A DNA stretch of 64,000 nt, from the NCBI GenBank assembly GCA_031549365.1, contig JAVBPX010000007.1:1-64000 (forward strand), written 5' to 3'. Below, one piece after another: positions 11,573 to 52,613 of this stretch. The position numbers and the translations under genes are program-made. The DNA comes from Alphaproteobacteria bacterium (lineage in GTDB: Bacteria > Pseudomonadota > Alphaproteobacteria > Rs-D84). Numbering within the stretch: the stretch's first letter is position 1; each line of letters opens with the position of its first letter. Under the pieces are notes generated by a model that ran no database searches, had not been told where the DNA came from, and was given only the letters and a program-made list of their open reading frames with translations.

Positions 11573-11583
11573 ATTTAACTCCT

Positions 11584-16807: not shown

Positions 16808-16879
16808 AACCCCTCCACAGTAAAAGTATTACCCACTTAATGAACGAACTAAAATAACGTCAAAATGGGATGAGTATAA

Positions 16880-16948: not shown

Positions 16949-16970
16949 TTTTTAATCGCCCATTTTCACG

Positions 16971-17159: not shown

Positions 17160-17284
17160 AATAACTCCTTATATATAATGTCTAAAACACACCAACCTTT
17201 GACTCTAAAAAAATACCCGTACCAACAAAAGTATTTCAAAATCAATCAAAACGTACTAGTTGGCTTCGCTTTTCATTGATTTTT

Positions 17285-28619: not shown

Positions 28620-28944
28620 CTTTGTTAAATAAAAAGCCCCGCACAATGGCGGGGCAATAAAAAACGGCGGCAAATCCGCCTCAATATGCTTTGCATTGTA
28701 CCACAAATCGTCAAAAAAATCAATAATAAACACCCTTAAAATTCCGACGCACCAATGAACAGTGCACTGCCAAAAACGGGCATTGTATGTAAACATCAAA
28801 ATATCGCCGTATTTTCACATATAAAATTACATACCATTGCAATAACCTTAAAAACACATCAAAAAATCCCCGGATTCCGGGGATAATTCAAGGGCTATTG
28901 ATTTTGTTAAAAATTACAGCAAAATCAACAAGTTATCTGGCGGG
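28620..28944 (-). repeat. att/promoter/leader module, copy at left (paralogue of 52280-52613)
   Basis: AACAGTGCACTGCC...TTATCTGGCGG is clearly homologous to 52428-52613. The homology continues through TTGATT-N17-TACAAT and two leader hairpins. Confidence 0.85.
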
Positions 28945-29790: not shown

Positions 29791-30879
29791 ATGAAACCAT
29801 TAATCAAACCATCCCCACTAAAACCCGGGGACACAGTCGCCACAGTATCTCTTTCTTGGGGTGGTGCTGGTATATTGCGAGATAGATATGAACAAGGTAA
29901 ACGCCAATTCATGGAAGCATTCGGAGTTAACATCATCGAAATGCCAAATTCATTAAGAACTCCGTCTGAATTATATGAACATCCGGAATTACGCTTGAAC
30001 GATTTAATGGATGCTTTTCAAAACTCGGAAATCAAAGCAATTTTGTGCAATATCGGTGGCGATGACACCATTCGTTTGTTGCGTTTGATGAATGATAAAC
30101 ATTTTGAAATTATGCGCAACAATCCAAAAATATTTATGGGTATGTCAGACACAACCGTTAACCACTTTATGTGTTTAAAGGCTGGAATTTCATCTTTTTA
30201 CAGCCCGGCAACAATGTTCGGATATGCTGAAAATTGCGGCATCCCGGAATTGATAGTGGAAAACACCAAAAAAACATTATTCTCAACCGAACCAATTGGC
30301 GAATTACCACACGCATCAGAATTCATGGTTGATAGGATTGATTGGGAATCTGGTAACGATATTTGTCGCCCACGTATCCCAACCACACCTTGGCGTTTTA
30401 TCCAAGGTGACAAACCAGCAACGGGCCGGTTATTGGGTGGATGCACAGATGTTTTAAATATGTTAAATGGAACACCATTATGGCCGGAAATTGATGAATG
30501 GAACAATACAATTTTATTCTTGGAGAACAGCGAAGAACGCCCATCGCCAGATTATATGTTATATACCCTGCGCTGTTTTGGTGCCCAAGGAATATTGGAT
30601 CGCATCAAAGGAATTATGTTTGCTCGTCCAGGCGGTGAGTTCAAACCGGGCGAAAAATCCGAAAAAGAAGAATGGTTAAAACTTTATCCAAAATTCGATG
30701 ACAAAATTTTAAAAGCATGTCGTGAATATGGGCGCACAGATATTCCAATTGTAACCAATATGGATTTTGGACACACCGTTCCACAATTTATATTACCATA
30801 CGGCGCCATGACCGAGATCGACCCCACAAAGAAAACCATATCAATATTAGAAAGCGCAGTCGATCAAAAGGATAAATAA
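29791..30879 (+). CDS. Peptidase S66 (LD-carboxypeptidase / MccF-like)
   Basis: LKPGDTVATVSLS, IGGDD, FMGMSDTT (Ser), FLENSEE (Glu) and DFGHT (His). Confidence 0.92.
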   Translation: MKPLIKPSPLKPGDTVATVSLSWGGAGILRDRYEQGKRQFMEAFGVNIIEMPNSLRTPSELYEHPELRLNDLMDAFQNSEIKAILCNIGGDDTIRLLRLMNDKHFEIMRNNPKIFMGMSDTTVNHFMCLKAGISSFYSPATMFGYAENCGIPELIVENTKKTLFSTEPIGELPHASEFMVDRIDWESGNDICRPRIPTTPWRFIQGDKPATGRLLGGCTDVLNMLNGTPLWPEIDEWNNTILFLENSEERPSPDYMLYTLRCFGAQGILDRIKGIMFARPGGEFKPGEKSEKEEWLKLYPKFDDKILKACREYGRTDIPIVTNMDFGHTVPQFILPYGAMTEIDPTKKTISILESAVDQKDK

Positions 30880-31838
30880 TGCTCGCAAAAAAATATCTGA
30901 ATAAAATTGTAACTGTAAAAATGGATCGTCCTTTGGGTTCGAAACATCCAAAACATGGGTTTATTTATGAAACAAATTACGGCTTTATCCCAAACACAAT
31001 TTCCGGCGATGGCGAAGAATTGGATGCGTATGTTTTGGGGCCAGATAAACCACTGGATGAATTCACAGGACGCTGTATTGCCATTATCCACAGAACCGAT
31101 GATGACGATGATAAATTAGTGATCGTTCCCGATGGTCTGGATTTGGATGATGAAACAATAGAATCTGAAACCGCATTCCAAGAAAAATGGTTCAAGCATA
31201 TAATTATTCGTGGCGGAGCTTATATTTTTGTCGCTGGTGGTGGCGATCGCGAAGATAGCGCAGAACTTGATAAACACTTCTTCGATTGCATCCCAACAAA
31301 TGGAAAAATTCTTTATTGCCCCGCGGCATTGGATTCGGATAAATATATGGGGGCATTGAAATGGTTCACCGACCTGGTTCGTCATTATCATGAAACAGCA
31401 ATAATAGAAATGCTGACCGAAGATAATGCAACCACAATCAATCTTAACGATTATGACGCAGTATATATTGGTGGTGGAAATACTTATAAACTGATGGACT
31501 TTATTGTAACCAAGGGTATGGACGTAAAATTAAAAGAATATATCAAATCCGGTGGTGTTATTTACGGAGGCAGTGCCGGTGCAATTATATTCGGAAAGTC
31601 AATCGATACAGCGCGTCAGGCAGATGACTCAACTGGATATAACCACACCAAGGGATTAAACCTATTAAACGAAGTCAGTATCGCATGCCATTGGCCGGAA
31701 CACGAAGAGTATGTCCGCCAATTTTCGATTGATAATTTTATGGCGCGAATTTATTGCCTCCCCGAAAATTGCGGAATGATTTTCGATGACCAAGGAGAAT
31801 TATTAATGACCATCGGAAACGGGATAGAGATTTTATAA
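30879..31838 (+). CDS. Inorganic pyrophosphatase-like domain fused to peptidase S51 (PepE-like)
   Basis: N-terminal DRPLGSKHP...NYGFIPNTISGDGEELDAY...DDKL; C-terminal YIGGGNT, GGSAGA and CHW. Confidence 0.85.
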   Translation: MLAKKYLNKIVTVKMDRPLGSKHPKHGFIYETNYGFIPNTISGDGEELDAYVLGPDKPLDEFTGRCIAIIHRTDDDDDKLVIVPDGLDLDDETIESETAFQEKWFKHIIIRGGAYIFVAGGGDREDSAELDKHFFDCIPTNGKILYCPAALDSDKYMGALKWFTDLVRHYHETAIIEMLTEDNATTINLNDYDAVYIGGGNTYKLMDFIVTKGMDVKLKEYIKSGGVIYGGSAGAIIFGKSIDTARQADDSTGYNHTKGLNLLNEVSIACHWPEHEEYVRQFSIDNFMARIYCLPENCGMIFDDQGELLMTIGNGIEIL

Positions 31839-31867
31839 AGATAAAATAACACCATAGAATATATAAA

Positions 31868-32392
31868 ATGACAGATTTTAAAATAAGAAATGCCAAGCCA
31901 GAAGATGCATCGGAAATCGCAAAGGTTATCCAAAGCGCAAGCAACATAGTTTATCGCGGCGTAATGTCGGATGAGCTTTTAAATCAAATGGCCACACCCG
32001 AATATTTAGAAGTTAGTACAGAAAAATTTAAAAATCGCATAGAAGATCAAAACAATGTCTCGCTAGTCGCCGTTGATAGTTCTGGTCGTATTTTGGGGTT
32101 CGTTTATGGCGGTAAAAGCAATGAGCAACTTAAAACAGATTGTGAACTTCATGCTCTCTATGTCCGTCCATCGGCTCAGAGTTCGGGTATTGGTCGAGAA
32201 CTTATGATGCAGTTTGCAAAACAAATGAAAATCCGTGGAGCAAAGACATTCGGTCTAGGCTGCCTCACCGCCAATAAAAGTTATAAATTTTATGAACGGA
32301 TGGGCGGTAAACCAATTTTGGAAACCATAAGCTCACGTGAAAACCTCCCAGAAACGTATTTTGAATATTCAATTGAAAAGTTAATTAACTAA
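31868..32392 (+). CDS. GNAT acetyltransferase
   Basis: IRNAKPEDA, LHALYVRPSAQSSGIGRELM and N..YKFYERMGG. Confidence 0.9.
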   Translation: MTDFKIRNAKPEDASEIAKVIQSASNIVYRGVMSDELLNQMATPEYLEVSTEKFKNRIEDQNNVSLVAVDSSGRILGFVYGGKSNEQLKTDCELHALYVRPSAQSSGIGRELMMQFAKQMKIRGAKTFGLGCLTANKSYKFYERMGGKPILETISSRENLPETYFEYSIEKLIN

Positions 32393-32617
32393 GATATAAG
32401 AAACACCTAAACAGGCGGTTTATTTAAAAACATAGGAAATGCCTAGCTAAAGCATAAAACAACCAACACTCTCATAATACTAATGATTTTACAAAATAAA
32501 CAACTGAAAATTAACAGATTTTAACTGATGCTAGAATATTTCACATATTTTTCAACTTGACTTATTCGTCAAATCTGCATAATAGAATATATAATATTTC
32601 AGCCAAATGAGACGCTT

Positions 32618-33922
32618 ATGAGCAGACACATCGTGATCAGAAAAGAAACATATGGAACTATTGTTTTCTCTCCAGATAAAGCTTGTTTTTATGAAATAAA
32701 AGATACAACCTTAAAAGATTTATTGATCAAAGACCCAAATTTTTTGTCCGCAGTGGAAAAGACGAAATACGCCAATGAGCTTCAAACTCTTGGCGTTTTT
32801 TCTTATCCAGTCCGAATTATTGATAATACAAATAGTAATTCATTTATCCCATTAGAGGCTTATTTTGATTACACATCAAAATGCAACCGAACATGTAGGT
32901 ATTGTTATAACAAAGATTTTATTAACCAAACAACTATGAAACCATCAATTGTTCAAAAAGTTTTCAATGATTTTTATGATCTTGGAATAATGAGAGTTCA
33001 TTTAGCCGGAGGAGAGCCAACGATAGATTATGACGGTATCAAAAACTATATTGAATATGGGAACAAAAAAGGAATGGTCATTTCTATGGCTACAAATGGT
33101 ACTCTTTTGGATGATAAAATGTGCGATCTGCTGACCTCAAATGATTTACTGTCTGTTAGTTTTAGCATTGATTCCGCATCCAAAGAAAAAAATGATGAAC
33201 GCAGAGGTGTTGGAACATTTGATAAATTAATCTCCGGAGTAGAAACATTGGGCAGATATAAAATATTGAATAACAGTTCAGTAGAGATTTGCTTTAAACC
33301 CGTTTATTCCCCAAGCTTTACGAAGCAAGAAGCAATAGATTTAATTGATTTAGCAATAAGTTTAGGTGTTGAAAAAGTTAAATTTGCAAATCCTGAGCGC
33401 TGTTTGTTTCATGAACAAAGATACTATGGAAAGATAAGTTCTGAGTATTATAACACATCTGAAATGCTTCAATCTGTCATTGATGACTATAAACTTAAAA
33501 TCGCATTAACAAACATTACTAATCCCGTATTTTGTAATGCAGATATTGGAATTTTTGAAAATAAAGGATGTATTGGCGCTCAAGAGCTTATAACAATAAA
33601 TCCAGATGGAAGAATTACACCATGTTTAATGAACCACACATTACTGGGTAATTATTATGATTATGAATCTCTATCTCGGTTTCTGGATACATCCAAAGAA
33701 TTAAAAGAATATAGAAAGTCAATAATTACAAAATCTTGTTTCAGTTGCCAATCTTACAAACAATGTCGTGGTGGCTGCCAGGTCAGAAAAATAGTCGAGT
33801 TTGGAAAAATTCAAGGTATTGACCCCCTGTGCCCAATAAAAATGGTTCAACATAAAATAAAACAAACAAATGTAATAAAAAATGAAGCAATCAAAAGAAT
33901 AAACGTTTTTCATTCTCTATAA
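32618..33922 (+). CDS. Radical SAM protein with SPASM domain
   Basis: CNRTCRYC, AGGEP, TNGT, GCIGAQ...PDGRITPC and CFSCQSYKQCRGGC...DPLC. Confidence 0.92.
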   Translation: MSRHIVIRKETYGTIVFSPDKACFYEIKDTTLKDLLIKDPNFLSAVEKTKYANELQTLGVFSYPVRIIDNTNSNSFIPLEAYFDYTSKCNRTCRYCYNKDFINQTTMKPSIVQKVFNDFYDLGIMRVHLAGGEPTIDYDGIKNYIEYGNKKGMVISMATNGTLLDDKMCDLLTSNDLLSVSFSIDSASKEKNDERRGVGTFDKLISGVETLGRYKILNNSSVEICFKPVYSPSFTKQEAIDLIDLAISLGVEKVKFANPERCLFHEQRYYGKISSEYYNTSEMLQSVIDDYKLKIALTNITNPVFCNADIGIFENKGCIGAQELITINPDGRITPCLMNHTLLGNYYDYESLSRFLDTSKELKEYRKSIITKSCFSCQSYKQCRGGCQVRKIVEFGKIQGIDPLCPIKMVQHKIKQTNVIKNEAIKRINVFHSL

Positions 33923-33931
33923 GGAAACACA

Positions 33932-35236
33932 ATGAAGATTTTTCTCATCAGACATGCTTTATCAGAAGGAAATGTAAATCACATAATTCAAGGAAATGAG
34001 TATGATTATGGAATAAGCCAACAAGGGAAAAACAATCTGAATTCGGTCAAAGAAAATTTAAAAGACAAAGGAATTTCATTCATCCTTCACAGCCCTTCTG
34101 CAAGAACTCTGGAAACAGCAGAATATATTTCCAAAAGTCTGAATATTCCAAAACAATCTGTTTCTGAATTAAGGGAATTTGATTCAGGAGTTTTGGCAGG
34201 ATTAACACATGAACAAGCAAAAAAGGACTTTCCTAAATATTATGATGAATGGATAAAAAGAGGAGATTTAGACTTTATTCCGGGTGCAGAGAAAGGGGAT
34301 AACTTACAAGCAAGATCGATTTATATAGCAAAAATACTCCAACAGTACAAAGATGAAACTATTTTAATAATATCGCACGCTGGGTTTATGAGATCTCTTA
34401 TAAATCTGCTATCATCAAAGGCCAGAATATCGCCTATCAATGTTGAGCATGAATATATCCATGAATTAAATATTGATTTAGATGAACATGAAGAAATAAT
34501 AAAAAATCTTCCAAACAAATCATTATCTAAAGTAAAAACACACGAAAAAACATACGTTATTAAAACACGTAAAAGCACAGAATCCCTACCTGATGTTTTA
34601 TACTATAAGCTATCAGAAGTGGGATTAATTCCAAGATTATGTTTCCTAAAATTAGAACATAATAATTTCACTTCTGTATCTATATGGGAAGATGGATATC
34701 ATTTACACGGAAAACTCGAATACAGCAATTTAATCCGGCTTATAAAAGCAGTAGCGACTTTATTCAATATTATAAATGAAAATAATTATAGTAATATACG
34801 AAAGTTTTCAGACATCGTTAATTGCACTTTATCTAAAAATTTATCTTACTCGGAAGTTTTAAAGATATGCCTTAATAAATTGCCAGTAGAAAACAAAATA
34901 ATTCACTATGATTTACATAGAGACAACATCTTATTTCAAAAAGATTTAATAAAAATTCTTGATGTTGACTCTTTGACTATGGGTAGTAAATTACTGCAAA
35001 TTGGAAGCTTTATCGTATCTTCATTTTTAATAGAAGATTATGATGAAAGTATCATTGATAATGTGTTGTATATCTGGAACTCCGATTATTCAAAAGAAGA
35101 TTTAATCCCGGCTATTATAGCTAAGGCTATCTTGTCATACAATTATTTTGAAAAAAATAAAGATGCTCAAAATAGAGAACATTACTTGCAAAAATATAAT
35201 AGCGTAATAAAACATTTTATAGGAAGTATCACATGA
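33932..35236 (+). CDS. Histidine phosphatase (PGM family) fused to an APH/choline-kinase-like phosphotransferase
   Basis: LIRHALS, SPSARTLETA and ISHAG in the N-terminal half; IIHYDLHRDNILF...ILDVD in the C-terminal half. Confidence 0.85.
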   Translation: MKIFLIRHALSEGNVNHIIQGNEYDYGISQQGKNNLNSVKENLKDKGISFILHSPSARTLETAEYISKSLNIPKQSVSELREFDSGVLAGLTHEQAKKDFPKYYDEWIKRGDLDFIPGAEKGDNLQARSIYIAKILQQYKDETILIISHAGFMRSLINLLSSKARISPINVEHEYIHELNIDLDEHEEIIKNLPNKSLSKVKTHEKTYVIKTRKSTESLPDVLYYKLSEVGLIPRLCFLKLEHNNFTSVSIWEDGYHLHGKLEYSNLIRLIKAVATLFNIINENNYSNIRKFSDIVNCTLSKNLSYSEVLKICLNKLPVENKIIHYDLHRDNILFQKDLIKILDVDSLTMGSKLLQIGSFIVSSFLIEDYDESIIDNVLYIWNSDYSKEDLIPAIIAKAILSYNYFEKNKDAQNREHYLQKYNSVIKHFIGSIT

Positions 35237-36468
35237 AAATTGCAATAGTCTCTTTTTATCATCGATACCAGGAATACCCAACTCAATACAGTTTGGCATC
35301 ACTACGCCTCCATCAATATATTTCCCATCATGGTTTTGATAGTCAAATAGTACCATTTTATCTGGACCAAGATAATATTGATATTGCCATTAAGGAGTTA
35401 AGCGACCAGCTTTCAAAATTTGATATCATCGGGTTATCATCATATCATTGGACAAAGAAATATGTAAAAGAAATTTCATCTTTATTAAAAATTAAAAATA
35501 ATAAATCCCAAGTTATCATAGGTGGACCAGAAGCAGAGAATGTAAACCCAAATGAATGGGAAAATGAAATATTTGTAGTTGGAGAAGGTGAGAACTCACT
35601 AATGCAAACCATCAACTATATAAAACGCGGTAAAAAAGATCTCTTGTTTTTCCAAGAGAATACTAATATTTTTGATAAAAATAACCCTGCAAATGAAAAA
35701 ATTGAAACTGAAATTCCATGTTTTAAAAGCCTATTCTCTGGCCTCTCATTTTATGATAGATCTTTCGCATGGTATGAAACAAATCGCGGATGTAGTTATT
35801 CTTGTGGGTATTGTGGACATAAAACTAGGAATAAAGTTGCCTTCTTTAACGACAAAATTATCGAAGATGAAATCAAACAAATTGGCACTATTGGATTTGA
35901 AAAAGTCTTTGTTATTGACCCTAATTTCGGAGGCAATAAAGAGAAAGGGAAACAAATTTTAAAGAAGTTTCATCAATTTGCACCAGATTCAAAATTAACA
36001 ATATATTTAAGACCCGAATTTATTGATGATGAATACATAAATCTTCTTAAAAAAACAAAATTAGCCGAAGTCCGCATAGGAATTCAAACAATTAATGAAA
36101 ACGTTCCCATGTGGGTTCGTTTCAATTCTATGAAGCATGTTCGACAAGAGCTACCAAAACTTTCACAAAATAACATAGAATGGAAAGCCGAACTAATTGT
36201 TGGTTTGCCAGGGGATAATGTGAATGGGTTGCTTCACAGCATTGATTTTGTTGAAAATTCCCTCAAACCATTTTCTTATATGTGCTATCATCTAACCATT
36301 ATAAAAAATACCAAAATAAACAAACTTGTAAATAACTTTAGTAACCCATTATGGCTAAAAATTGATCAAGACAGAAAAGTCAAAGAAGCATCAACCTACT
36401 CAAGTAATGAACTTCAATTGATGCTAGATATCTCCAAAGAAAAAGTATTAAAATACAACCACCGATAG
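35233..36468 (+). CDS. Cobalamin-binding radical SAM protein
   Basis: B12-binding domain (DIIGLSSYHW, VIIGGPE, VGEGE), ETNRGCSYSCGYC, IGIQT and LIVGLPGD. Confidence 0.9.
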   Translation: MKIAIVSFYHRYQEYPTQYSLASLRLHQYISHHGFDSQIVPFYLDQDNIDIAIKELSDQLSKFDIIGLSSYHWTKKYVKEISSLLKIKNNKSQVIIGGPEAENVNPNEWENEIFVVGEGENSLMQTINYIKRGKKDLLFFQENTNIFDKNNPANEKIETEIPCFKSLFSGLSFYDRSFAWYETNRGCSYSCGYCGHKTRNKVAFFNDKIIEDEIKQIGTIGFEKVFVIDPNFGGNKEKGKQILKKFHQFAPDSKLTIYLRPEFIDDEYINLLKKTKLAEVRIGIQTINENVPMWVRFNSMKHVRQELPKLSQNNIEWKAELIVGLPGDNVNGLLHSIDFVENSLKPFSYMCYHLTIIKNTKINKLVNNFSNPLWLKIDQDRKVKEASTYSSNELQLMLDISKEKVLKYNHR

Positions 36469-36469: not shown

Positions 36470-38308
36470 TTATTTTAAAAAATCATTCAATCTATCGGCA
36501 ATTTTCTTATCAATCAGATTTTTTTTTAAGGAAACGATTTCATCTATTGGCAAACCTTTAAGACCATTTGCAACAGTCATTATTTTTTCATTCTCAGCTT
36601 TAAGCCAATTTTTTGCCATAGATACAACCTGGTCGATTTTAACCATTCCTTTTTCACCAGTTGATCTTACTTTCCATTCAGCAGAACCCTGTTCCAAAGT
36701 CCGTTGACTAATAACAAACTGCAGAGGAACACCCAATAAGTCTATATCGGCAAACTTTTCACCGGCACTGGTGTTTCTGTCATCCAAGATAACTTCAATG
36801 CCTTCTTTTTGCATTTGTTTATACAAATCATTCGCTTGGTTTTCAATGGTTTTGTCTTCTGATTTTCCTGCCAGTGCAACGATGGATACTTTCCATGGTG
36901 CAATCGATACTGGCCAAATAGGACCACGCTCATCATATCTTGCTTCAACTACACTTGCCATTAATCGTCCAATTCCAATGCCATAGCATCCCATAATGGG
37001 CGTTTGAATCTTTGTATTTTCATCCATATATGACATTTTCATAGATTTGGTATATTTATCACCCAATTGGAATATATTACCAACCTCGATACCTCTGTGA
37101 ACTTTGATTGGGCTTCCACATTTTTGACATAAATCACCATCTTGCACGGATACTAAATCAAACAACTCTGCTGTTGGAATATCTCGCTTGATATTGAAAT
37201 TAGCAAAATGATATCCTTCTTCATTGGCTCCTGTAACAAGGTTCTTTTCTAAAGTCAAACCTTCATCAACAATAACTCTCGCGTTTTTTAATTTATACCC
37301 AGAAGCATATCCAGGGACTACTCCAGAATTATCAAATGCAATATCATCTGCGAATTCGGGCATCGCTTGCAAAATTTTCGACAATTTACTTTCATTTACA
37401 TCTCTGTCGCCACGAATCATAACTACAATAGTTCTTTTGTCCCCATCAACAGGTTTATAAACGACAGTCTTTGCAAAACGATTTGATGGCATTTTTAACA
37501 ATTTTGAAACTTCTTCGATTGTTTCTGCATTTGGTGTATAGATTTTTTCCAATGGCTTTTCTGTGTCATTTTCATTAACTACGGTAATCTTTGAGTTTGC
37601 AACTTCTTTGTTTGCTTTGTAATCGCAGTCTGAGCAAGTGATAATTGTGTCCTCTCCGGATGAGGTTAACAACATGTACTCGTGGGCAACTTTACCACCC
37701 ATCATACCACTGTCTGATTTAATAGCAATGACTTCTGGAATCCCAGCCCTCGCAAAAATACGACTGTATGCAATAGCTGCCCTTGCATAGTAGCCTTCCA
37801 AATCTTCCTGAGAGGTATGGAAAGAATATGCATCTTTCATGGTGAATTCCTTAACTCGGATTAACCCTCCGCGTGGACGAGCTTCGTCCCTGAACTTCTT
37901 CGCGAATTGGTATATTGTAAATGGATAATCTTTATAGCTGGTAGCCTCAGTCCTTGCCAAAGCAACAGCAGTCTCTTCATGAGTCATGGCCAAAACCATG
38001 TCATGTTCGTTTCTGTCTTTGAAACGAGCCAATTCATCATTAATGGCGAAATAACGGCCAGATTCTTCCCAAAGCTCTTTTGGTTGAACCAAAGGCATTT
38101 CAACTTCTTGCCCATCAATATTATTCATCTCTTCACGGACAATAGCTTCTATATTCTTTAAAACCTTTAAACCAGGCAATAATGAAGAAAATATCCCACT
38201 GAAAACAGGACGAACATACCCACCACGAATGAGTAACTCATGGCTTTTTAATTTGGTATCACTTGGCTTTTCTTTATAACGTTTGCCAAGAAGTTGATTT
38301 ATCTTCAT
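36470..38308 (-). CDS. proS: Proline--tRNA ligase (long form with INS editing domain)
   Basis: KFRDEARPRGGLIRVKEFTMKDAYSFH, GIEVGNIFQLG, MGCYGIGIGR and an anticodon-binding domain. Confidence 0.96.
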   Translation of the reverse strand: MKINQLLGKRYKEKPSDTKLKSHELLIRGGYVRPVFSGIFSSLLPGLKVLKNIEAIVREEMNNIDGQEVEMPLVQPKELWEESGRYFAINDELARFKDRNEHDMVLAMTHEETAVALARTEATSYKDYPFTIYQFAKKFRDEARPRGGLIRVKEFTMKDAYSFHTSQEDLEGYYARAAIAYSRIFARAGIPEVIAIKSDSGMMGGKVAHEYMLLTSSGEDTIITCSDCDYKANKEVANSKITVVNENDTEKPLEKIYTPNAETIEEVSKLLKMPSNRFAKTVVYKPVDGDKRTIVVMIRGDRDVNESKLSKILQAMPEFADDIAFDNSGVVPGYASGYKLKNARVIVDEGLTLEKNLVTGANEEGYHFANFNIKRDIPTAELFDLVSVQDGDLCQKCGSPIKVHRGIEVGNIFQLGDKYTKSMKMSYMDENTKIQTPIMGCYGIGIGRLMASVVEARYDERGPIWPVSIAPWKVSIVALAGKSEDKTIENQANDLYKQMQKEGIEVILDDRNTSAGEKFADIDLLGVPLQFVISQRTLEQGSAEWKVRSTGEKGMVKIDQVVSMAKNWLKAENEKIMTVANGLKGLPIDEIVSLKKNLIDKKIADRLNDFLK

Positions 38309-38425: not shown

Positions 38426-39808
38426 TCACATAAAGAATCGGTATTGATACTTTTGCCTAATAATTTCTGGGACATCCCTAACTACTTGGGCAAAAAGACT
38501 AGAATAGTGCAGCGTTATTGGGATTGACTTATACAAAGTATTATTGTTCCAATCAACCTTGGTCAATCCCAATATTGCGCTACACGTATCATGCCAGCCA
38601 TTTGATCCCAAAAACTTTTTTACAAGTACAGGCCGTGGCATAGGAGTTAAAGCGCCTTCTTTAAAAACAGAACGACCAGAAAGATCAACTGTGCCCTGAA
38701 TCCATAAAAGACATTCATTGTTTTTAAATGGTATATAACAACCACGGTTAATCGGATATCCGTCCGCTTGTTTTGCTGCCCTTATCTTTATTCCTTGCCA
38801 GTCAGTATGCTGTATTTGTATTAACTCTAGTTCAATTCCACTGCCAAGCGCCTTTCTACAACCATTTATTTCATCAGAGGAAAAAGGTATTGTTTTATGT
38901 ATGGTAATTTTTTTTGGTATTTTACCAGAGTGAGTATTTTGATATACCTGCAGACTTCTAGACATAATGTTCATGGTCTCTTGTTCGCTAAGATATGGAT
39001 TTCTGTTATTCTCATCCATTGTAAAGTCGGTAACATCATATGCGATAAATTCAAACCCGATACCCGCGGAGTCAAAAATTTGGCTGCAACATGTTATATA
39101 GCTCGAACCTTCAGACTGTTTATTCATCGCATAACTGAGTCCAACAAAAGCCTCATCATTAGTGGTAACATCTAATTTCCAGGGGATTCCGCCAGCTTTT
39201 GCATAAGTAGCTATGCTTATTCCCCACATAACATTAGCTCGGCAATTTCCACTGGATTTATCGGTAATTATTTGAATAGGCACCCCTAATGGTGCTGCAA
39301 TAGCTTTTATGAAATTATGAAGATCAAAATCAGGCGTTTTAAAAATCCCATGCCATGTATCTGGCAAATAAAGAAATAAAACTTCAAATCTCATCTTTTG
39401 TTGATTTATAGATATCAAAACCTCTTTGAATTTTTGTTTGAAAGAGCATATGTCACCACTCCTGGCAAAAACATCAATCTCAGAATCAAATTCAAAGTTT
39501 AAAGAGCTGTCCAAAACTATTTTGGTTCTGAAAATATTTTCAAAACCTATATAATCTGGATAATATTCTGGTGCATATAATGGTTTGATCGTTGAGGATA
39601 ATTCTGTCATAACTCCAGAAATTTTACCATTTCCACCAATAGGGGTCAGGCTGGCAATACGTATTGTATCTAAATATTTTAAATCCAAACTGTATGGTCC
39701 AAATGCTTTCAAGCCCAAAAGAGGATTTACAGATTTATTGCCGCCAGCAAATACCAATTCAGGTTCTTTAACCTGTGAATATGCAGATAATCTAGAGGTA
39801 GTAGTCAT
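38426..39808 (-). CDS. Short prokaryotic Argonaute (MID-PIWI)
   Basis: EPELVF, GLKAFGPYS, YAKAGGIPWKL, LTKVDWN, PITLHYS and terminal YRFFM; coupled to SIR2-APAZ. Confidence 0.92.
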   Translation of the reverse strand: MTTTSRLSAYSQVKEPELVFAGGNKSVNPLLGLKAFGPYSLDLKYLDTIRIASLTPIGGNGKISGVMTELSSTIKPLYAPEYYPDYIGFENIFRTKIVLDSSLNFEFDSEIDVFARSGDICSFKQKFKEVLISINQQKMRFEVLFLYLPDTWHGIFKTPDFDLHNFIKAIAAPLGVPIQIITDKSSGNCRANVMWGISIATYAKAGGIPWKLDVTTNDEAFVGLSYAMNKQSEGSSYITCCSQIFDSAGIGFEFIAYDVTDFTMDENNRNPYLSEQETMNIMSRSLQVYQNTHSGKIPKKITIHKTIPFSSDEINGCRKALGSGIELELIQIQHTDWQGIKIRAAKQADGYPINRGCYIPFKNNECLLWIQGTVDLSGRSVFKEGALTPMPRPVLVKKFLGSNGWHDTCSAILGLTKVDWNNNTLYKSIPITLHYSSLFAQVVRDVPEIIRQKYQYRFFM

Positions 39809-41508
39809 TACATCTCCCCTTTTGCTGTAAAGGCTGTTATTGGGGAAATTTCAAATTTAATATCGTTGTTTTCACTAAAAACAGGAAAACTAACAGCTTC
39901 CGTAGCGTTGCCAAATATTATTCTCTTCCAAATATCCAAAAGGGTATTTTGCTTGTTGTTATATCTAGTCTTCTTCCGTCCTCTAAGAAATCTAATCTGT
40001 TTTTCTCTTTCCGTTAATGGTTCTATCCATGTTTCAGGTTGTACAACTAACCAAAATACACCGTTTCTAAAATCAATTTTTATTTTTAAGCATTCAGTCC
40101 ATGATGCTGATGGCAACATTGTTCCAGCGATTTGACCTGCAAAAGTTTTTAATTCTGCAAACAAAGGGTCGTTAATGCTTCTCTCTTTTGGTACAATATA
40201 ATATGTATTTCTAATCTTCCTGAAGCTTAAAGGTTTATCTTTACATAAAGCGGTTACCAAGCCTCTATATATAAAATCTTTTAAATAACCATGTTTCACA
40301 ACATCGTCAGGAGAAAATTCAAAATCAGAAATTATACTCGGTTTAGGAAAAACCTTTTTTATTTCCTCTATTGAACCCCAAGCCAAAACGTTATCTTTTT
40401 TTGTCATTATAGCGCAAGTTCGTGCCATTTTGCACTTGTCTTTCAGATCTTTGATGCCTAAAATACTGTTATCTACTATTTGTTTGGCATTTTGTGGTAG
40501 ACCTGTTATTGGAAATGCATTAAGTCTTATTACTGGGAAATTTGTTCCTGGTTGTGGCAACGAAATATTCAAAGGTTGCTCTTCGATCTTTAATTTTTCT
40601 GATAATTCTACCGATTTTCCAGGGACACTAGCCCATATAAAATTCATAAGGCTGTCAAAAGAATCGATCTCTATAATTTCAGCATTAATACCTTTCGATT
40701 TTGCTCTATCAATAAAATCATACACTGACTGTAAACACCTAGATTTATCAGATGCCATCCAAAAAATTCCCTGGGGAAAAGGGTTCACAGTATCCAAGGC
40801 AGAATTTAGCATTCTCATAACATTGTTATCACGGCCACTGTATCCCGCGATTATCAGTCCCATACGTGTAGCAGATGCCAAAAAACATCTTTCTAATTCT
40901 TCACAATTACTGATTAAATCTTCCGATAAGTTTTTTACACTTTGATATCGATAATCGCCATGTAGTTTAACGTAAAAAGGGAAAGAGCTATTATTTATAG
41001 CGTTAATTGCCCCCTCAGCACCTTCTATATTATAAACCTGTAAAGGCTGTCCGATTACATCAGCATATGACCGTTCAAAAATATTATCAAAATTAGTTGT
41101 AAATACCAACCTCGATTTATCCATGTGCACTAATGCAGACAATATTTTAAAACCGATATTCGGGTCAACGTTTTCAGCAATAAGCATCCTATTTAAATAT
41201 TGTCTTTGTAAATTCCGATTATCACCAAACAATAATTCAAAGTAAAAGGAATATTCCTCAATAGAATCTTCAGCAGGAGCGCCCTTAGAATCCAAATAAT
41301 TTTGGATATTTCTCTTTATTGAACTTTCACCTATGTTTAAATCATCTATATTTAGATTTTCTTCAGTGGCATAGTAAATTTTCTTTAAATCCCATGTAAT
41401 ATCCCAAGCGGTAGGTAGCCCGGCAGATCTTGGCGCACCAGCCCCCAATAACCACATAAAATTTGGAGAATAATTGTTAAAATGTGTTAAAAATTCGGAT
41501 ATTTTCAC
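39808..41508 (-). CDS. SIR2-APAZ effector (SPARSA system)
   Basis: LLGAGA, TTNFD, KLHGD and GYSGRD SIR2 motifs; APAZ-type C-terminus (IRLNAFPI...RYN..QNTLLDIW). Confidence 0.9.
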   Translation of the reverse strand: MKISEFLTHFNNYSPNFMWLLGAGAPRSAGLPTAWDITWDLKKIYYATEENLNIDDLNIGESSIKRNIQNYLDSKGAPAEDSIEEYSFYFELLFGDNRNLQRQYLNRMLIAENVDPNIGFKILSALVHMDKSRLVFTTNFDNIFERSYADVIGQPLQVYNIEGAEGAINAINNSSFPFYVKLHGDYRYQSVKNLSEDLISNCEELERCFLASATRMGLIIAGYSGRDNNVMRMLNSALDTVNPFPQGIFWMASDKSRCLQSVYDFIDRAKSKGINAEIIEIDSFDSLMNFIWASVPGKSVELSEKLKIEEQPLNISLPQPGTNFPVIRLNAFPITGLPQNAKQIVDNSILGIKDLKDKCKMARTCAIMTKKDNVLAWGSIEEIKKVFPKPSIISDFEFSPDDVVKHGYLKDFIYRGLVTALCKDKPLSFRKIRNTYYIVPKERSINDPLFAELKTFAGQIAGTMLPSASWTECLKIKIDFRNGVFWLVVQPETWIEPLTEREKQIRFLRGRKKTRYNNKQNTLLDIWKRIIFGNATEAVSFPVFSENNDIKFEISPITAFTAKGEM

Positions 41509-46029: not shown

Positions 46030-47064
46030 ATGGCAGATTTTTCAGAATATAAAAAACTGGGCGAGCCAGATAAAACCGCAAAAAGCGAAATATGGGAAAT
46101 GGCCACTGGTCTGCAAAAAGTCGACGGATTAAAAACATCTGAATATTTGCGAGATTTGGCACGTAAAAACATCGAGGGCAAGCTTTCCATTTACCAAGTC
46201 CAAGAATCTGTGCGTCAGTATTATAAAACTCCAAAAGGAAGGTCAGAGTTTTGGGGTTCAGAGGAAGCAGACCTTGTTTCTGCGCATATAAGCGAAATAC
46301 TCTCAGAACAAACATTTGCTTTCAGTCCTGCGGAATACATCTCTATTCATGGGCGTCTATTTGCAGGTATTTTGGACGACAAAATTACTGGAAAAATTCG
46401 CGATTATAATATAATCAAAGACGAATGGGTATTGGGCGGAGAGTCCGTAAGTTACGCCAGTGCAAACAGTATCGCGACAACATTAGAATACGACTTTGAT
46501 CGTGAAAAGTCTTTTGATTATAAAGAATTGAGTGAACGCGAAATGGCCGAGCATATCGCAAAATTTGTATCTGGAATATGGCAAATTCACGCATTTGGCG
46601 AAGGCAACACACGAACAACAGCCGTATTCATTATAAAATATTTGCGCACACTTGGCTTTGACGTAAATAACGACCCATTTGCCAAACATTCTGATTATTT
46701 CAGAAACGCATTAGTACGTGCAAATTATACCAACATTAAACTTGGTGTTCATGCGACCATAGAATATCTAAATAAGTTTTTTTATAACCTGTTACTGGGT
46801 GAGAAAAATATGCTCCATAATAGTAGTCTGGTTATTATACCTGGCAAAACTAAAGAAAAGACTGCGAAACCAAAGAAAACAAAAGCACGAGATACATTGT
46901 TAATGCTAATCGCTGAAAAGCCGGACATATCAATAGAGGAAATGTCCAAAAAGACAGGTCTTTCCGTCGGTGGCGTGCGGTGGAATATTGATAAATTAAA
47001 ATCCGATGGCGTTATCCATCGTGTAGGTGCCAGAAAATTGGGTCATTGGAAAATATTAAAATAA
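46030..47064 (+). CDS. Fic family protein with N-terminal VbhA-like region and C-terminal HTH
   Basis: HAFGEGNTRTT Fic motif; N-terminal ATGLQKVDGL; C-terminal HTH ending GHWKIL. Confidence 0.9.
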   Translation: MADFSEYKKLGEPDKTAKSEIWEMATGLQKVDGLKTSEYLRDLARKNIEGKLSIYQVQESVRQYYKTPKGRSEFWGSEEADLVSAHISEILSEQTFAFSPAEYISIHGRLFAGILDDKITGKIRDYNIIKDEWVLGGESVSYASANSIATTLEYDFDREKSFDYKELSEREMAEHIAKFVSGIWQIHAFGEGNTRTTAVFIIKYLRTLGFDVNNDPFAKHSDYFRNALVRANYTNIKLGVHATIEYLNKFFYNLLLGEKNMLHNSSLVIIPGKTKEKTAKPKKTKARDTLLMLIAEKPDISIEEMSKKTGLSVGGVRWNIDKLKSDGVIHRVGARKLGHWKILK

Positions 47065-47410: not shown

Positions 47411-47798
47411 ATTATGGTCGCGATATGTACCACATCCATACAAACGGCAAATCCGTGCATTATGGTATTACGTTCGGTGTGAAAATATGAACCTAAAAAT
47501 CGAATCCAAACACATGACAAAGATTAGGAAATATTTGGATAACCCAGAACGATGCACAGACCGCGCATACAAAATAAAATACAGCCTGCACCCGGGAACG
47601 GAAATCACAAAAACATTCCGTGGTTTGGAATTCAAAGTGTTGGTCGCCGATAATGGCGACTTTCTTTATGACGGGAAACGATACAAAACATTATCACCAA
47701 TCGCCAAAGAAATCTGTGGGATAAAAGTATCCGGCCCAGACTTCTTTGGCCTGCGAACAAAAAGGATAAGGAATACAAACAAAACGACAGATGTTTAG
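47340..47798 (+). CDS. DUF2924 protein
   Basis: PGTEITKTFRG...FLYDGKRYKTLSPIAKEICGIKVSGPDFFGL. Confidence 0.85.
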   Translation: MKPKIYLPKTLDELQKLSHEKKSELWSRYVPHPYKRQIRALWYYVRCENMNLKIESKHMTKIRKYLDNPERCTDRAYKIKYSLHPGTEITKTFRGLEFKVLVADNGDFLYDGKRYKTLSPIAKEICGIKVSGPDFFGLRTKRIRNTNKTTDV

Positions 47799-48991
47799 TT
47801 TGTTCTGAAAAATCCCAACTTTCCAATTCTTATTTGATGTGGGGCTTGAACGACCCATTTTGGGTCACTCATTTTTACATCATCAAATAAAACTGCGCCT
47901 TGATTAATCAATCGCCGAATATCAGAATTTGATTTGTCTGGCATACATAATTTCACAATATCAAATACAGAATGATTTCCGACCGTTAGGTGAATAGTTG
48001 GTGCGTCTTTTGGAAACTCATTTTTTGAAAACGTATCAATAAAATTCTGTTTCGCGTTTTCCGCTGCTACGTCGCCACGAAACAACCGAACGATTTCAGT
48101 CGCAGCAAAAACTTTTGCATTCCGTGGATTATTTTGAATATCCAACGTTTTAATTTGTTCCAATGGAATCCGTGTGTTCCAACGTAAAATCATATCAATT
48201 GCAACATCTGGCATTGCCATAATTTCACCAAACATTTGATCTGAATTCGAATCCAAAAACACACCTTTGCGAAATGATTTTGACATCATCGGTTCGCCCG
48301 TATTTGGATTGGTCATTAATTGCAAAATCAGGCAAAACTTTTCCTTACCCAACTTTGTTTTAACCAATTGACGACCCAACAATGCATTAAAAGTTTGATC
48401 GGTCCCACAAACCTCAACATCTGCATTTAACGCCACGGAATCGAACCCTTGTAATAACGGGTACAGAAATTCATGCAGATGAACAGGTTTACAATCATTA
48501 ATCCTTTTTTGAAACATATCTCGTTCCAACATTCGTTGCACCGTTGTTTCAGACGCCAATGTTATAAATTCGGACAATGAAATCTTATCCAACCATTCGC
48601 TGTTGAATACGATTTGTGGTGGGTTGATCGGATCGTCGAAATCCATCAAATTTTTAACTTGTTCGCGCCAACGCATTGCGTTTTCGGTTGTCTCTGCTCG
48701 TGTTAAACACTTGCGCGCACAACTGCGATCACTGGGGTCGCCGATGCATGCTGTAAAATCTCCAAAAACCAAAAACACTTTGTGCCCCAATTTGCGAAAC
48801 TCTTCCATCAACATAAAGTTTTGCGCATGCCCAAGGTGCAAAGCACTAAATGTTGGATCAAACCCGATAAACATATTTAATTTATGCGTCAACGCATGTT
48901 CAATAAATTCGTCTTTTGATGGCAAAGCATCAACAATAAGTCCTCGACTGAAAATTTCTTCCAGTTTTTGGCGTTCATTAATTTTATTCAT
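47795..48991 (-). CDS. tyrS: Tyrosine--tRNA ligase
   Basis: GFDPT..ALHLGH, GDFTACIGDPS, YPLLQGFDS, GTDQTFN, MSKS and a C-terminal S4 domain. Confidence 0.95.
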   Translation of the reverse strand: MNKINERQKLEEIFSRGLIVDALPSKDEFIEHALTHKLNMFIGFDPTFSALHLGHAQNFMLMEEFRKLGHKVFLVFGDFTACIGDPSDRSCARKCLTRAETTENAMRWREQVKNLMDFDDPINPPQIVFNSEWLDKISLSEFITLASETTVQRMLERDMFQKRINDCKPVHLHEFLYPLLQGFDSVALNADVEVCGTDQTFNALLGRQLVKTKLGKEKFCLILQLMTNPNTGEPMMSKSFRKGVFLDSNSDQMFGEIMAMPDVAIDMILRWNTRIPLEQIKTLDIQNNPRNAKVFAATEIVRLFRGDVAAENAKQNFIDTFSKNEFPKDAPTIHLTVGNHSVFDIVKLCMPDKSNSDIRRLINQGAVLFDDVKMSDPKWVVQAPHQIRIGKLGFFRTN

Positions 48992-49278
48992 AATATTATC
49001 CCTTGTTTTGTTGTTTTATCATATCGAAAGTTTGGTATTTATTCCCTTAAGCGCGAAACTTCCGTATGACAGACAACGCCTAAGGGCAGATATAGTAATA
49101 GTTACCTACATACATCGGCGAAGATGCAACAAAACAAGGTTTAAAAAAGGTTTCATGTGATGACATGATAATTCCTTGGTTTCCGCATCAATATATTCCA
49201 GATTTCCCCAAAAGTCAAGTATTCCATTTGACTTCCCACACAACGTAAGCATTCATTGTGGTAACCAAGGGGGTAAAT

Positions 49279-50778
49279 ATGCCAAAAATTAAATGCGCGA
49301 TATATGTTCGTAAATCGACCGAGAAAGGTTTGGATATGGAATTTAATTCATTACATAACCAAGAAGATTCTTGCCGATCATACATCGCATCGCAATCATT
49401 CAACAACTGGGAATATTACAAAACATACACTGATGGTGGAATATCTGGTGGCACCATGGAGCGCCCCGCATTACAACAAATGTTGAACGACATCGAACAC
49501 GGATTGATACAAATTGTGGTGGTTTACAAAGTCGACCGCCTGTCACGACCCATCATGGATTTTCATAATATGATAAAACGTTTTGAAAAATATAATTGTG
49601 ATTTTGTTTCAATTACCCAGGCTTTTGACACATCCTCATCAATGGGAAAACTGACGCTGAATATGTTATTGTCGTTTGCCCAATTCGAACGCGAAGTATC
49701 ATCGGAACGTGTCCGCGATAAAATCCGAGCCAGCAAAGCCAAAGGCCTGTGGACTGGCGGAATGCCAAAATTGGGATACGATATTATCAATCGTAAATTG
49801 GAAATAAATCTGGACGAAGCCGATCAGGTTAAATTCATATTTGAAACATATTTGATTGTTGGATCATTGTCTGAATTATCCGAAATTACCCGCGGCCGAA
49901 ATATCACTATGAAAAAATGGACAACCCAAACCGGTCACATTATGGGTGGTGGAATATTTTCAACCAGTTCATTAAACCGATTATTGCACGAAAAATTATA
50001 CATTGGAAAAATTGAAAACAAACGCACAAAACAATTCTTTGACGGTCAACACGCGGCCATTATTTCGCCGGAATTGTTTGATGCTGTTCAACAAAAATTA
50101 TCCGACCAAAATCGCCGAAAAACTGAAACCACTAAACAATCAAACAATTTATTATCTGGTAAAATATTCAATGCCAATGGTCGGGCATTCACCAACCAAT
50201 CAACAACGGGCAGTGATAAACGATATTACGCCAGTCCTGGGTTTTACATTCCCGCCCACGATGCCGAAAGAATTGCCACAGAAACCATTGTTGAATTATT
50301 GGACGCAGACCTTTCAAAACTGCCGCCCAACACAGCGATGTCCATGAAGCAAATTGATTTCAACGGATTGGAATATTTACAGCAACGCGAATTAATCAAG
50401 TCGTTAATCGCCAAAATCATATATGCAAATAATCAAATGACATTCTTCATAAAGCCCGACCCCGCTGTAATCCGACAATTCGCAACCAACACAATCAATG
50501 AAAACAATACACCAATGGATTTCATCATCGACAACAATACAATCATTATAAAACGTGATATAGTCTTTATGAAAGGCATCAGCAGCAATAAGTATAATGC
50601 CGGTAAAACAGGAATGCTGACTATCACCGACAACAACCACCTTATCACCCGGGCATTCGTGATTGCTTGGCGATTCCGTAAAATATATGAAGAACATGGC
50701 GACACGAAACTACTGGCTAAAATGGAAAAAACATCATTGCGAAATGTTTTTAAATATTTGAATATTGCATATCTGTAA
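49279..50778 (+). CDS. Large serine recombinase (C-terminus truncated by an in-frame TAA)
   Basis: CAIYVRKST, YTDGGISGGTMERPALQ, VYKVDRLSR and FAQFERE. The frame continues PDKVNEIMSG...FEISTQ to ~50856. Confidence 0.92.
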   Translation: MPKIKCAIYVRKSTEKGLDMEFNSLHNQEDSCRSYIASQSFNNWEYYKTYTDGGISGGTMERPALQQMLNDIEHGLIQIVVVYKVDRLSRPIMDFHNMIKRFEKYNCDFVSITQAFDTSSSMGKLTLNMLLSFAQFEREVSSERVRDKIRASKAKGLWTGGMPKLGYDIINRKLEINLDEADQVKFIFETYLIVGSLSELSEITRGRNITMKKWTTQTGHIMGGGIFSTSSLNRLLHEKLYIGKIENKRTKQFFDGQHAAIISPELFDAVQQKLSDQNRRKTETTKQSNNLLSGKIFNANGRAFTNQSTTGSDKRYYASPGFYIPAHDAERIATETIVELLDADLSKLPPNTAMSMKQIDFNGLEYLQQRELIKSLIAKIIYANNQMTFFIKPDPAVIRQFATNTINENNTPMDFIIDNNTIIIKRDIVFMKGISSNKYNAGKTGMLTITDNNHLITRAFVIAWRFRKIYEEHGDTKLLAKMEKTSLRNVFKYLNIAYL

Positions 50779-50835
50779 CCCGATAAAGTAAACGAAATCA
50801 TGTCGGGCACAAAGTGTTACAGCCTTAACGATTTG

Positions 50836-50897
50836 TTCGAAATATCTACTCAATAATAAAACAGTGCACTGCCGAAAATGGGCATTGTATGTAACAT
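50836..50897. repeat. Third partial copy of the recombinase-end/att-proximal repeat
   Basis: TTCGAAATATCTACTCAATAATAAAACAGTGCACTGCCGAAA..GGGCATTGTATGTAA is shared with ~52403-52460; the AACAGTGCACTGCC part is also at ~28757. Confidence 0.85.
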
Positions 50898-52279: not shown

Positions 52280-52613
52280 ATCAAATAAAAAAAAAGCCCT
52301 GCCAGAAATAGCAGGACTAAAATTAAAAAAAGACGGATAAAATCCGCCTAAACATGTCCCATATTATATCATAAATCGTCAAAAAAATCAATCATAAATT
52401 TCTTCGAAATATCTACTCAATAATAAAACAGTGCACTGCCGAAATAGGGCATTGTATGTAAAGATCGAAATATCTAGGTGTTCCGGCAGATAAAATTACA
52501 TACCATTGCAATAACCTTAAAAACGCATCAAAAAAATCCCCGGATTCCGGGGATAATTCAAGGGTTATCGACTTTGTTAAAAATTGCAGTAAAATCAACA
52601 ACTTATCTGGCGG
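52280..52613 (-). repeat. att/promoter/leader module, tRNA-proximal copy
   Basis: Homologous to 28620-28944; TTGATT-N17-TATAAT promoter and GGCGGATTTT..CCGTC leader hairpin. Confidence 0.85.

Follow-up and report, generated by a model that had tools for sequence, protein, structure and literature searches.

A rare, mobile gene trio of two radical SAM enzymes and a phosphatase–kinase fusion that recurs beside second prolyl-tRNA synthetases

The three genes considered here lie at positions 32618 to 36468 of a 64,000-nucleotide (nt) stretch of alphaproteobacterial DNA (contig JAVBPX010000007.1), the whole of which we refer to as the window, and encode a radical S-adenosylmethionine (SAM) enzyme with a SPASM domain, a histidine phosphatase fused to a predicted kinase, and a predicted cobalamin (B12)-dependent radical SAM enzyme. 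Their catalytic motifs are intact, they form a conserved, rare and horizontally mobile unit, and this unit has repeatedly come to lie next to a gene for a second prolyl-tRNA synthetase (ProRS). We tentatively read the trio, with confidence that falls somewhat short of even, as a small-molecule pathway that would use a phosphate as a transient handle and whose product would act on ProRS, the adjacent ProRS being a resistant back-up; the substrate class, the logic of the phosphate handle, the target and the role in resistance are all things that we infer from the genes. In what follows L labels a locus and G a genome, G000 being the genome that carries the window, 911 kb in size and recovered from an invertebrate gut metagenome.

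Gene content of the trio

All three genes are on the forward strand. The radical SAM/SPASM gene (32618..33922; 434 aa, PF04055 and PF13186) is separated by a 9-nt gap from the gene for the histidine phosphatase–kinase fusion (33932..35236; 434 aa, PF00300, with the kinase half at residues ~185–434), which in turn overlaps by 4 nt the gene for the cobalamin-binding, class B radical SAM enzyme (35233..36468; 411 aa, PF02310 and PF04055). The GC fraction between 32 and 36.5 kb is 0.28–0.33, as against 0.36–0.40 in the flanks on either side, and together with the gene coordinates this bears out an earlier interpretation made from the DNA alone (here the sequence-only reading), which had described three tightly linked, AT-richer genes. 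Its domain assignments hold, as does its description of the catalytic motifs as intact: nothing is missing from the two radical SAM motifs, the set of six SPASM cysteines or the phosphatase residues. A promoter-like site precedes the SPASM gene (32566..32595, forward strand; TCGTCA-18-TATAAT, matching at 10 of 12 positions), but it is weak and a matter of consensus only, the scan having returned 45 such sites where 32 were expected from shuffles.

The same reading called the trio uncharacterised, and this holds. None of the three proteins reaches the cut-off of any NCBIfam model, the best matches lying far below (95 bits against 400, 77 against 163 and 87 against 600, in gene order), and assignment to a known family was therefore rejected, a protein atlas having given generic radical SAM/SPASM clusters only. 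Full-text literature searches found no description of the cassette, nor of its four domain names in combination. A metatranscriptome library from the same study contains exact contigs over parts of the surrounding genomic island, including 33021–33343 within the SPASM gene and a 1482-nt contig that equals 36632–38113, most of the window's ProRS gene (proS); these are at most a weak hint of transcription of the island, as carry-over of DNA is possible, and stretches with no contig over them carry no information either way.

A conserved, rare and mobile cassette

A profile scan returned eight loci from species-representative genomes; metagenomes gave 13 more, of which three are trivial matches to the kinase motif. 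The 18 real related loci (L009–L026) include two of identical sequence (L014 and L022). The sequence-only reading had taken the trio to be conserved, and all three genes do stand side by side in 15 of these 18 loci; two others are cut by contig ends and in one (L016) no more than a remnant of the fusion gene is left. The loci come from Clostridia, a metagenome-assembled genome (MAG) of the Bacilli, a Halodesulfurarchaeum MAG and another archaeon, and four orders of the trio genes occur. In L011 and L013, which are near-identical, the B12 gene is in three pieces.

The cassette is also scarce. The fusion protein is represented by 13 clusters at E≤0.001 among 5.8 billion proteins, the SPASM profile finds about 23 representatives scoring at least 370 bits among 1.84 billion (the next scores being 319, 290 and lower), and among 41 genomes of the window's own order a full-length fusion match occurs only in G000. 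Collections of plasmids, phages and viral contigs yielded matches to stand-alone phosphatases but no cassette, and IMG/VR returned nothing with either profile. Stand-alone phosphatases were likewise all that was found, with no fusion, in five further genomes that have a family-II ProRS (G463, G353, G621, G414 and G499).

Certain genes accompany the trio in some of its loci. A PF13350 (PTP-type) phosphatase gene follows it in six (L010, L013, L014, L019, L021 and L026) and a HAD phosphatase gene in L017; as no PF13350 gene was found in G000, this phosphatase is an accessory and not a core gene of the cassette. In L010 and L013 the cassette has NUDIX genes for neighbours. In L026, a gut metagenome contig, the stretch upstream of the trio (5653–9935 of that locus) encodes a LysR regulator with a fused radical SAM domain, together with a CYTH protein and a homologue of RelA/SpoT.

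A second prolyl-tRNA synthetase beside the trio

Convergent with the trio and 1 nt after its end is the gene for a second ProRS, of bacterial family II with the editing insertion (36470..38308, reverse strand). It encodes a canonical full-length enzyme, with the domains PF00587, PF04073 and PF03129 present and the THEE motif intact, and scores 652 bits against NF006625 (cut-off 558) and 572 bits against TIGR00409; G000 also has a family-I ProRS at C14:166844-168163 (452.5 bits, cut-off 437). In the sequence-only reading the trio was said to lie about 2 kb from the SPARSA defence system. The two do share an island, but the 2 kb between them are a complete second ProRS gene, which had been overlooked.

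Family-II ProRS genes lie no more than two genes from the cassette in the window and in L010, L014 (=L022), L016, L019, L021 and L026. The linked enzymes of the related loci are of a short family-II type that lacks the editing insertion; they keep their anticodon-binding domains, and all five that were scanned, L016 not among them, pass the TIGR00409 cut-off. Nine distinct loci combine a complete trio with 2 kb or more of flanking sequence on one side, and ProRS is found in five of them (L010, L014, L019, L021 and L026) and not in the other four (L009, L012, L013 and L015). All six tested bacterial hosts have a family-I ProRS. In G000 and in G041, G042 and G043, which are the genomes of L010, L014 and L016 and carry the short form, the family-I enzyme is encoded elsewhere and the family-II enzyme beside the cassette or its remnant, a layout as in self-resistance, where a second gene of the target type lies beside the cluster and the ordinary copy is kept. 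Hosts in which the B12 gene is broken (G044 and G346) have family I only and no family-II ProRS.

In a first tree of 23 rows the six Firmicutes partners formed one clade and the window enzyme fell with its own class (support 99/98). The idea that cassette-linked ProRS form one dedicated clade held in that tree and failed once 20 resident family-II ProRS (ProRS-II) of the L010 host order were added, when the partners split into L014 and L026, next to residents, and L010, L016, L019 and L021. The window ProRS makes a third lineage, grouped with ProRS of the same class and not with the cassette-linked ones of Firmicutes. With at least three ProRS lineages involved, the trio therefore either became a neighbour of family-II ProRS on three or more occasions or kept its position through gene replacement, and judging from these sequences such recurrent adjacency would be hard to explain without a functional tie.

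The adjacency might nevertheless be incidental, a product of insertion preference or of a shared mobile neighbourhood, with the trio acting as a stand-alone tailoring or salvage cassette, for example for a nucleoside or a part of a cobamide. Such a role would suit a phosphatase whose best NCBIfam match is the alpha-ribazole phosphatase CobC (77 bits, cut-off 163), and an incidental neighbour would be no surprise where family-II ProRS is common in the host order, where the G000 island also holds a tyrosyl-tRNA synthetase (TyrRS) gene and where the four flanked loci named above have no ProRS. We nonetheless consider this unlikely, given that the adjacency recurs with three ProRS lineages in varied orders and orientations and that the chance of adjacency within a few genes in a genome of ~1500 genes is estimated at well below 1% per event.

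The linked enzymes of the Firmicutes differ from 11 comparators at ten otherwise conserved positions, among them the changes THEE to TAEE, QIQTK to QIGxK and RxREF to RxKEF. In motif 2 the linked lineages, that of the window included, and the family-II ProRS of G344 (the Halodesulfurarchaeum MAG) have Q136 replaced by G or A and R153 by K, where the comparators have R153 in 11 of 11 and at position 136 Q in ten and S in one. We considered whether the motif-2 changes are special to trio-linked ProRS and rejected this, as ten wider members of the subfamily carry the same signature and the whole clostridial short ProRS-II subfamily has it. This large subfamily (L061–L079) has TAEE or TGEE for THEE and its genes mostly come right after scpB; one member is named 'aminoacyl-tRNA ligase-related protein' by one source, and in the full-text literature searched the role of the subfamily appears to be undescribed.

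The wider occurrence of the two ProRS types is mixed. Among 25 relatives of G000, 14 have family I only, nine short family II only, one (G011) both, and in one neither was detected; in G011 the family-I and short family-II genes adjoin (G011:C13:7803-10464). The intact-cassette host G045 and the archaeon G345 have only a family-I ProRS. In G344 a bacterial-type, short family-II ProRS is encoded on another contig (L059:8996-10267, G344:C7) in an ordinary chromosomal setting, and passes TIGR00409 at 366.7 bits (cut-off 306.7). A search for a family-I ProRS in this genome gave none; such a combination is uncommon in archaea, though the MAG may have gaps. Neither tRNA-Pro nor an unusual tRNA gene lies near any cassette examined, 12 cassette loci gave no T-box or riboswitch at gathering scores, and between 26 and 44 kb of the window the sole Rfam match is a sub-threshold, GcvB-like one inside an island repeat.

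The three enzymes and their likely substrates

The product of the B12 gene is predicted to be a cobalamin-dependent class B radical SAM enzyme. PF02310 covers residues 26–124 (33.2 bits, cut-off 32.1) and PF04055 residues 182–340, C187, C191 and C194 are invariant, and the nearest solved sequences are TokK and CysS. The best subfamily match is PhpK, at 86.9 bits against a cut-off of 600, and the best library family is the PADLOC model PDC-M51A (141.5 bits, E 8e-42, aligned over the whole length), which also scores 123–150 bits in three homologues. No other B12-binding domain turned up in G000, so the cell would have to import its cobalamin.

The phosphatase of the fusion belongs to branch 1 of its family and occupies residues 1–175 (PF00300, His_Phos_1, 113 bits), with R8-H9 in the window protein and E82 and H149 invariant. 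The C-terminal half has no Pfam match of its own at E≤0.01. We assign it, from sequence and profile comparison, as a putative kinase of the APH/choline-kinase type because PF01636 (APH) is found on nine of the 13 clusters of the fusion family, because K211, D327, N332 and D344 are invariant, and because the family profile matches APH(2'') kinase structures, next to PspA, PhoE and CobC phosphatases. The AlphaFold2 (AF2) model (pLDDT 87.5) is in keeping with this, the best fold match of the kinase domain being the choline kinase LicA and those of the phosphatase domain PspA, PhoE and CobC.

In the SPASM enzyme, across 50 sequences, C89 and C96 are invariant and C93 nearly so, giving the CxxxCxxC motif, and the six SPASM cysteines (C318, C336, C374, C377, C383 and C405) are invariant, with PF13186 at 20.2 bits falling just below its cut-off of 21.5. 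The best sequence families are the peptide maturases GeoRSP, PapB, PqqE and MftC, and no maturase equivalog cut-off is reached (GeoRSP 95.3 bits against 400, PapB 93.4 against 340). The AF2 model (pLDDT 93) has as its best whole-chain fold matches SuiB (Foldseek TM 0.68, the full-length alignment spanning 452 columns) and CteB, followed by SkfB and anSME. Its N-terminus is drawn as strands at residues 5–10, 13–18 and 23–27 and then helices at 30–38, 42–47 and 52–58, a layout that looks like that of the peptide-binding RRE (PqqD-like) domain and within which R8 and E10 are invariant. As modelled, the enzyme has the build of a peptide maturase, and the sequence-only reading had overlooked this build, that is, the RRE-like domain and the fold matches to SuiB and CteB. 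The chain ends in ...INVFHSL, whose H432 and L434 do not vary across 13 of 13 sequences; the pattern ...H-[S/T]-L is likewise found in all 13 family members, and AF2 draws a strand at 425–429. Distant SPASM homologues keep the N-terminal domain and are without the tail, and one of them with the same N-terminal domain (P0096) is fused to a NUDIX hydrolase.

This build brings with it a different account of the cassette, as a system that modifies a peptide or protein. The SPASM enzyme would then be an RRE-dependent maturase, with the B12 enzyme adding methyl to its substrate and the kinase adding phosphate to a Ser or Thr. That substrate would be encoded elsewhere, or it would be some conserved protein of the cell, for instance the ProRS next door, or else the SPASM enzyme's own invariant C-terminal tail. 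The modelled three strands and three helices with R8 and E10, the matches to SuiB, CteB, SkfB and anSME, the maturase sequence families and the conserved tail modelled as a strand all point this way, and APH-type kinases phosphorylate Ser/Thr in some pathways for peptides made on ribosomes and modified after translation (RiPPs). A precursor is what the loci fail to provide, as the sequence-only reading had said: an all-against-all comparison of 626 small open reading frames (ORFs) from 15 loci returned only near-identical loci or gene shadows, inspection by eye of the intergenic ORFs of 11 loci found nothing common, and the window likewise has none. The accompanying statement that there is no protease or exporter stands in so far as none is conserved with the cassette, but two peptidase-family genes (S66 and S51) lie directly upstream of the trio in the window. 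The occurrence of the cassette in both bacteria and archaea makes a host-encoded peptide substrate unlikely, and the nearest folds of the kinase are those of the small-molecule kinases LicA and APH(2''). On balance we take modification of a peptide or protein to be unlikely, while still a serious contender.

A variant of this idea, and in our estimation a long shot, is that the tail of the SPASM enzyme (...V-x-H-S/T-L) would itself be a scaffold or substrate in cis, held by the RRE-like domain, on which the two radical enzymes and the kinase–phosphatase would build a proline-related antimetabolite with ProRS supplying activated proline. The cassette would then be a precursor-in-cis version of pearlin-like scaffold synthesis of small molecules, the product being the first bacterial natural product aimed at ProRS.

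A tentative pathway directed at prolyl-tRNA synthetase

In the reading that we prefer, the B12 and SPASM radical enzymes would carry out carbon-centred chemistry on a small metabolite, probably one of nucleoside or amino-acid origin. The fused kinase would add a phosphate handle, which the fused phosphatase would later remove, assisted in most Firmicutes loci by the extra PTP-type phosphatase. The product would act on ProRS, most likely on the family-I enzyme of the tested bacterial hosts, and the family-II ProRS beside the cassette would be an insensitive back-up. Two ProRS types in one bacterium are reported to be able to differ in their tolerance of an inhibitor (PMC11229370).

The closest precedent for the chemistry is the sinefungin pathway of Streptomyces incarnatus. 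As reported for it, the B12 radical SAM enzyme SinC joins an adenosyl group to arginine, the kinase SinF adds and the phosphatase SinD removes a 2'-phosphate ('cryptic phosphorylation'), and the pathway also uses tRNA-charged amino acids (10.64898/2026.05.21.726688). It shares with the trio, as there described, a cobalamin radical SAM enzyme, a phosphate handle managed by a kinase and a phosphatase, and contact with the aminoacyl-tRNA machinery, a likeness of logic only. It differs in having no SPASM enzyme and in that its kinase and phosphatase are separate proteins, and it makes use of four components that the trio is without, namely an arginase, PEARLs, an exporter and a corrinoid adenosyltransferase.

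We favour a small molecule directed at ProRS because the cassette is independent of its host, because kinase and phosphatase are fused and extra phosphatases join them, because of the sinefungin precedent, and because the six tested bacterial hosts use a family-I ProRS and the island has a theme of synthetases and hydrolases. A number of observations weigh against it. Three hosts with an intact trio have no adjacent ProRS (G045, G345 and G344), and conversely G011 has both ProRS types and no trio. Short family-II ProRS is widespread without the trio: 80 of the 301 genomes in G041's order have it, upwards of 120 clusters share 49% identity or more with the ProRS of L010, and in 16 of 20 sampled genomes it sits beside or after the housekeeping gene scpB. 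It is therefore not a dedicated cassette gene. The motif-2 changes belong, as said above, to the subfamily at large. An island with a second TyrRS may simply collect synthetase genes, the cassette has no exporter, and the modelled maturase build of the SPASM enzyme would suit a small molecule less well than a peptide or a protein.

The recurrent adjacency would serve equally well if the neighbouring ProRS were an enzyme of the pathway, giving prolyl-adenylate or Pro-tRNA for a product such as a proline-bearing nucleoside or a similar conjugate. Enzymes that keep their anticodon-binding domains and pass TIGR00409, yet have changes at THEE (to TAEE) and in motif 2, might suit such a task, as might a subfamily with a member named as an aminoacyl-tRNA ligase-related protein, and sinefungin tailoring, as noted above, uses tRNA-charged amino acids. 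The cassette, however, has no transferase that uses aminoacyl-tRNA, be it a PEARL, a Fem-type protein or a cyclodipeptide synthase, the ProRS of the window is of canonical type and full length and retains both its editing domain and THEE, and three intact-cassette hosts have no adjacent ProRS. We hold a direct enzymatic role for ProRS to be rather unlikely.

Defence and modified nucleotides

The sequence-only reading had proposed that the cassette makes a modified nucleotide for defence against phages, the kinase and phosphatase setting its phosphorylation state. Several neighbours lend themselves to this view. The window island also carries SPARSA and a Fic protein that matches the PADLOC candidate PDC-S72 (389 bits), the best library match of the B12 enzyme is the candidate PDC-M51A, at the 141.5 bits given above, and in the archaeal MAG locus L012 (L012:81-9785) the trio lies between fragments of a type I restriction–modification system (two S pieces, a 309-aa M and a 133-aa R), where it is either embedded in a defence locus or inserted into a decaying one. 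PDC-M51A is itself a candidate that arose from 'guilt by embedding' (10.1101/2024.01.29.577857). For a nucleotide product there are hints only, namely the NUDIX genes near the L010 and L013 cassettes, the SPASM relative fused to a NUDIX hydrolase and the PTP-type phosphatase in six loci.

The expected enrichment near defence genes did not appear, as only one of ten other loci, L012, lies amid clear defence genes by PADLOC, and none of the other loci examined showed SPARSA adjoining the trio. Outside the generic radical SAM core, no PADLOC model matches either the SPASM protein or the fusion, and the likeness to viperins that had been suggested is not supported either: NF038283 gives 67.9 bits against a cut-off of 180, over residues 85–193 only, and the PADLOC viperin (pVip) models match the core alone, at residues 85–195. 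Add that the cassette was absent from the plasmid, phage and viral-contig collections and that the proposal gives the link to ProRS no place, and anti-phage defence by a modified nucleotide comes to look quite improbable.

The island and its other genes

The sequence-only reading had placed the trio on a mobile island with SPARSA, and in this it was right on both counts. The island of 23.7 kb is bounded by direct repeats of ~270 bp at 28672..28943 and 52340..52613 (families D1–D4, 72–93% identical, spacing 23.67 kb), the right one overlapping the 3' end of a tRNA-Ser(gga) gene (52608–52697, reverse strand), and within it a large serine recombinase with the Pfam domains Resolvase and Recombinase is the likely integrase (49258..50778, forward strand). 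Genes for DUF2924, terminase and ParB-methylase proteins lie near the recombinase. A partial third boundary repeat of 64 nt follows just after it (50831–50894, family D2, 95% identical to 52398–52461), and the GcvB-like Rfam match mentioned above, at 28.1 bits against 42, is within the left repeat. SPARSA (38426..41508, reverse strand) comprises a short pAgo at 38426–39808 (pAgo_I, 517 bits) and SIR2-APAZ at 39808–41508 (Aga_SIR2, 521 bits), both called by PADLOC, and is cargo of the island and not part of the cassette. The Fic/DOC protein, which has a winged-helix domain, is encoded at 46030–47064 on the forward strand.

Directly upstream of the trio and co-directional with it are genes for an S66 hydrolase, an S51 peptidase and a GNAT protein (29791–32392, forward strand). 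The S66 hydrolase is closest to BA3275 of Bacillus anthracis (331 bits) and scores higher against the microcin-C immunity protein MccF (75 bits) than against LD-carboxypeptidases (LdcA, 26–50 bits), and the S51 peptidase has a pyrophosphatase-like N-terminal piece. The three resemble genes that give immunity to antibiotics of the aminoacyl-nucleotide kind. Conservation with the trio is lacking, an S51 homologue 7 kb upstream in L026 being the only counterpart.

Between the DUF2924 gene and the recombinase gene lies that of the island TyrRS (47795–48991, reverse strand; TIGR00234, 254 bits). The other TyrRS-like gene of G000 (C3:7922-9010) is 30% identical to it over the full length, so that a 911-kb genome carries two extra synthetases, for proline and tyrosine, on one mobile element. 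Elsewhere in the window, at 6302–17740, is a second phage-like patch with a T7-type terminase nuclease domain, a nozzle protein, Phage_capsid_2, a T7 capsid assembly protein and a GNAT protein.

Comparison with known systems

Extra synthetase copies adjoin the gene clusters for several synthetase inhibitors, namely albomycin (SerRS), mupirocin (IleRS) and agrocin 84 (LeuRS). The trio resembles these in that a second, divergent synthetase lies by the biosynthetic genes while the ordinary enzyme is kept, and differs in that its ProRS type is widespread without the cassette. Bacillus thuringiensis is reported to have co-existing P-type and E-type ProRS (PMC11229370) and Streptomyces to have ProRSx with tRNA-ProX (PMC10404621). 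The likeness is of two ProRS forms with different properties within a genome, or of a divergent bacterial-type ProRS tied to a special neighbour; those cases have no radical SAM genes, and the trio has no unusual tRNA gene nearby.

The SPASM enzyme is like SuiB, CteB, SkfB, PqqE and anSME in whole-chain architecture, in fold, and in its CxxxCxxC motif and auxiliary-cluster cysteines. Unlike SuiB, CteB and SkfB it has no precursor gene, lies far below the NCBIfam maturase cut-offs, bears an invariant C-terminal tail and is always paired with a B12 enzyme and a phosphatase–kinase. With viperins and their kinases, and with OxsB and OxsA, the trio has in common radical SAM nucleotide chemistry, a B12-type enzyme and phosphate-handling partners as general features; the pVip match is confined to the core region given above, the trio has no HD phosphohydrolase, and OxsB is not among the sequence matches of the trio to solved structures. 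Component A of PDC-M51 is like the B12 enzyme over its whole length, while the fusion and SPASM proteins match no PDC-M51 component. Full-text literature searches found nothing on PDC-M51, nor any ProRS-directed bacterial product or pathway with such a gene cluster.

Significance

Synthetase inhibitors are proven antibiotics, and a second copy of the target gene by biosynthetic genes is among the most reliable signposts to a new one. If the cassette does make a ProRS-directed compound, this would be a new chemotype made by two radical enzymes, would offer a reason for many gut Clostridia keeping a second, odd ProRS, and would mean that such chemistry has been carried on a mobile island into a bacterium with a genome of 0.9 Mb. 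Even if our guess at the target is wrong, the combination of enzymes is new, as is a 'leaderless', maturase-like SPASM enzyme with an invariant tail.

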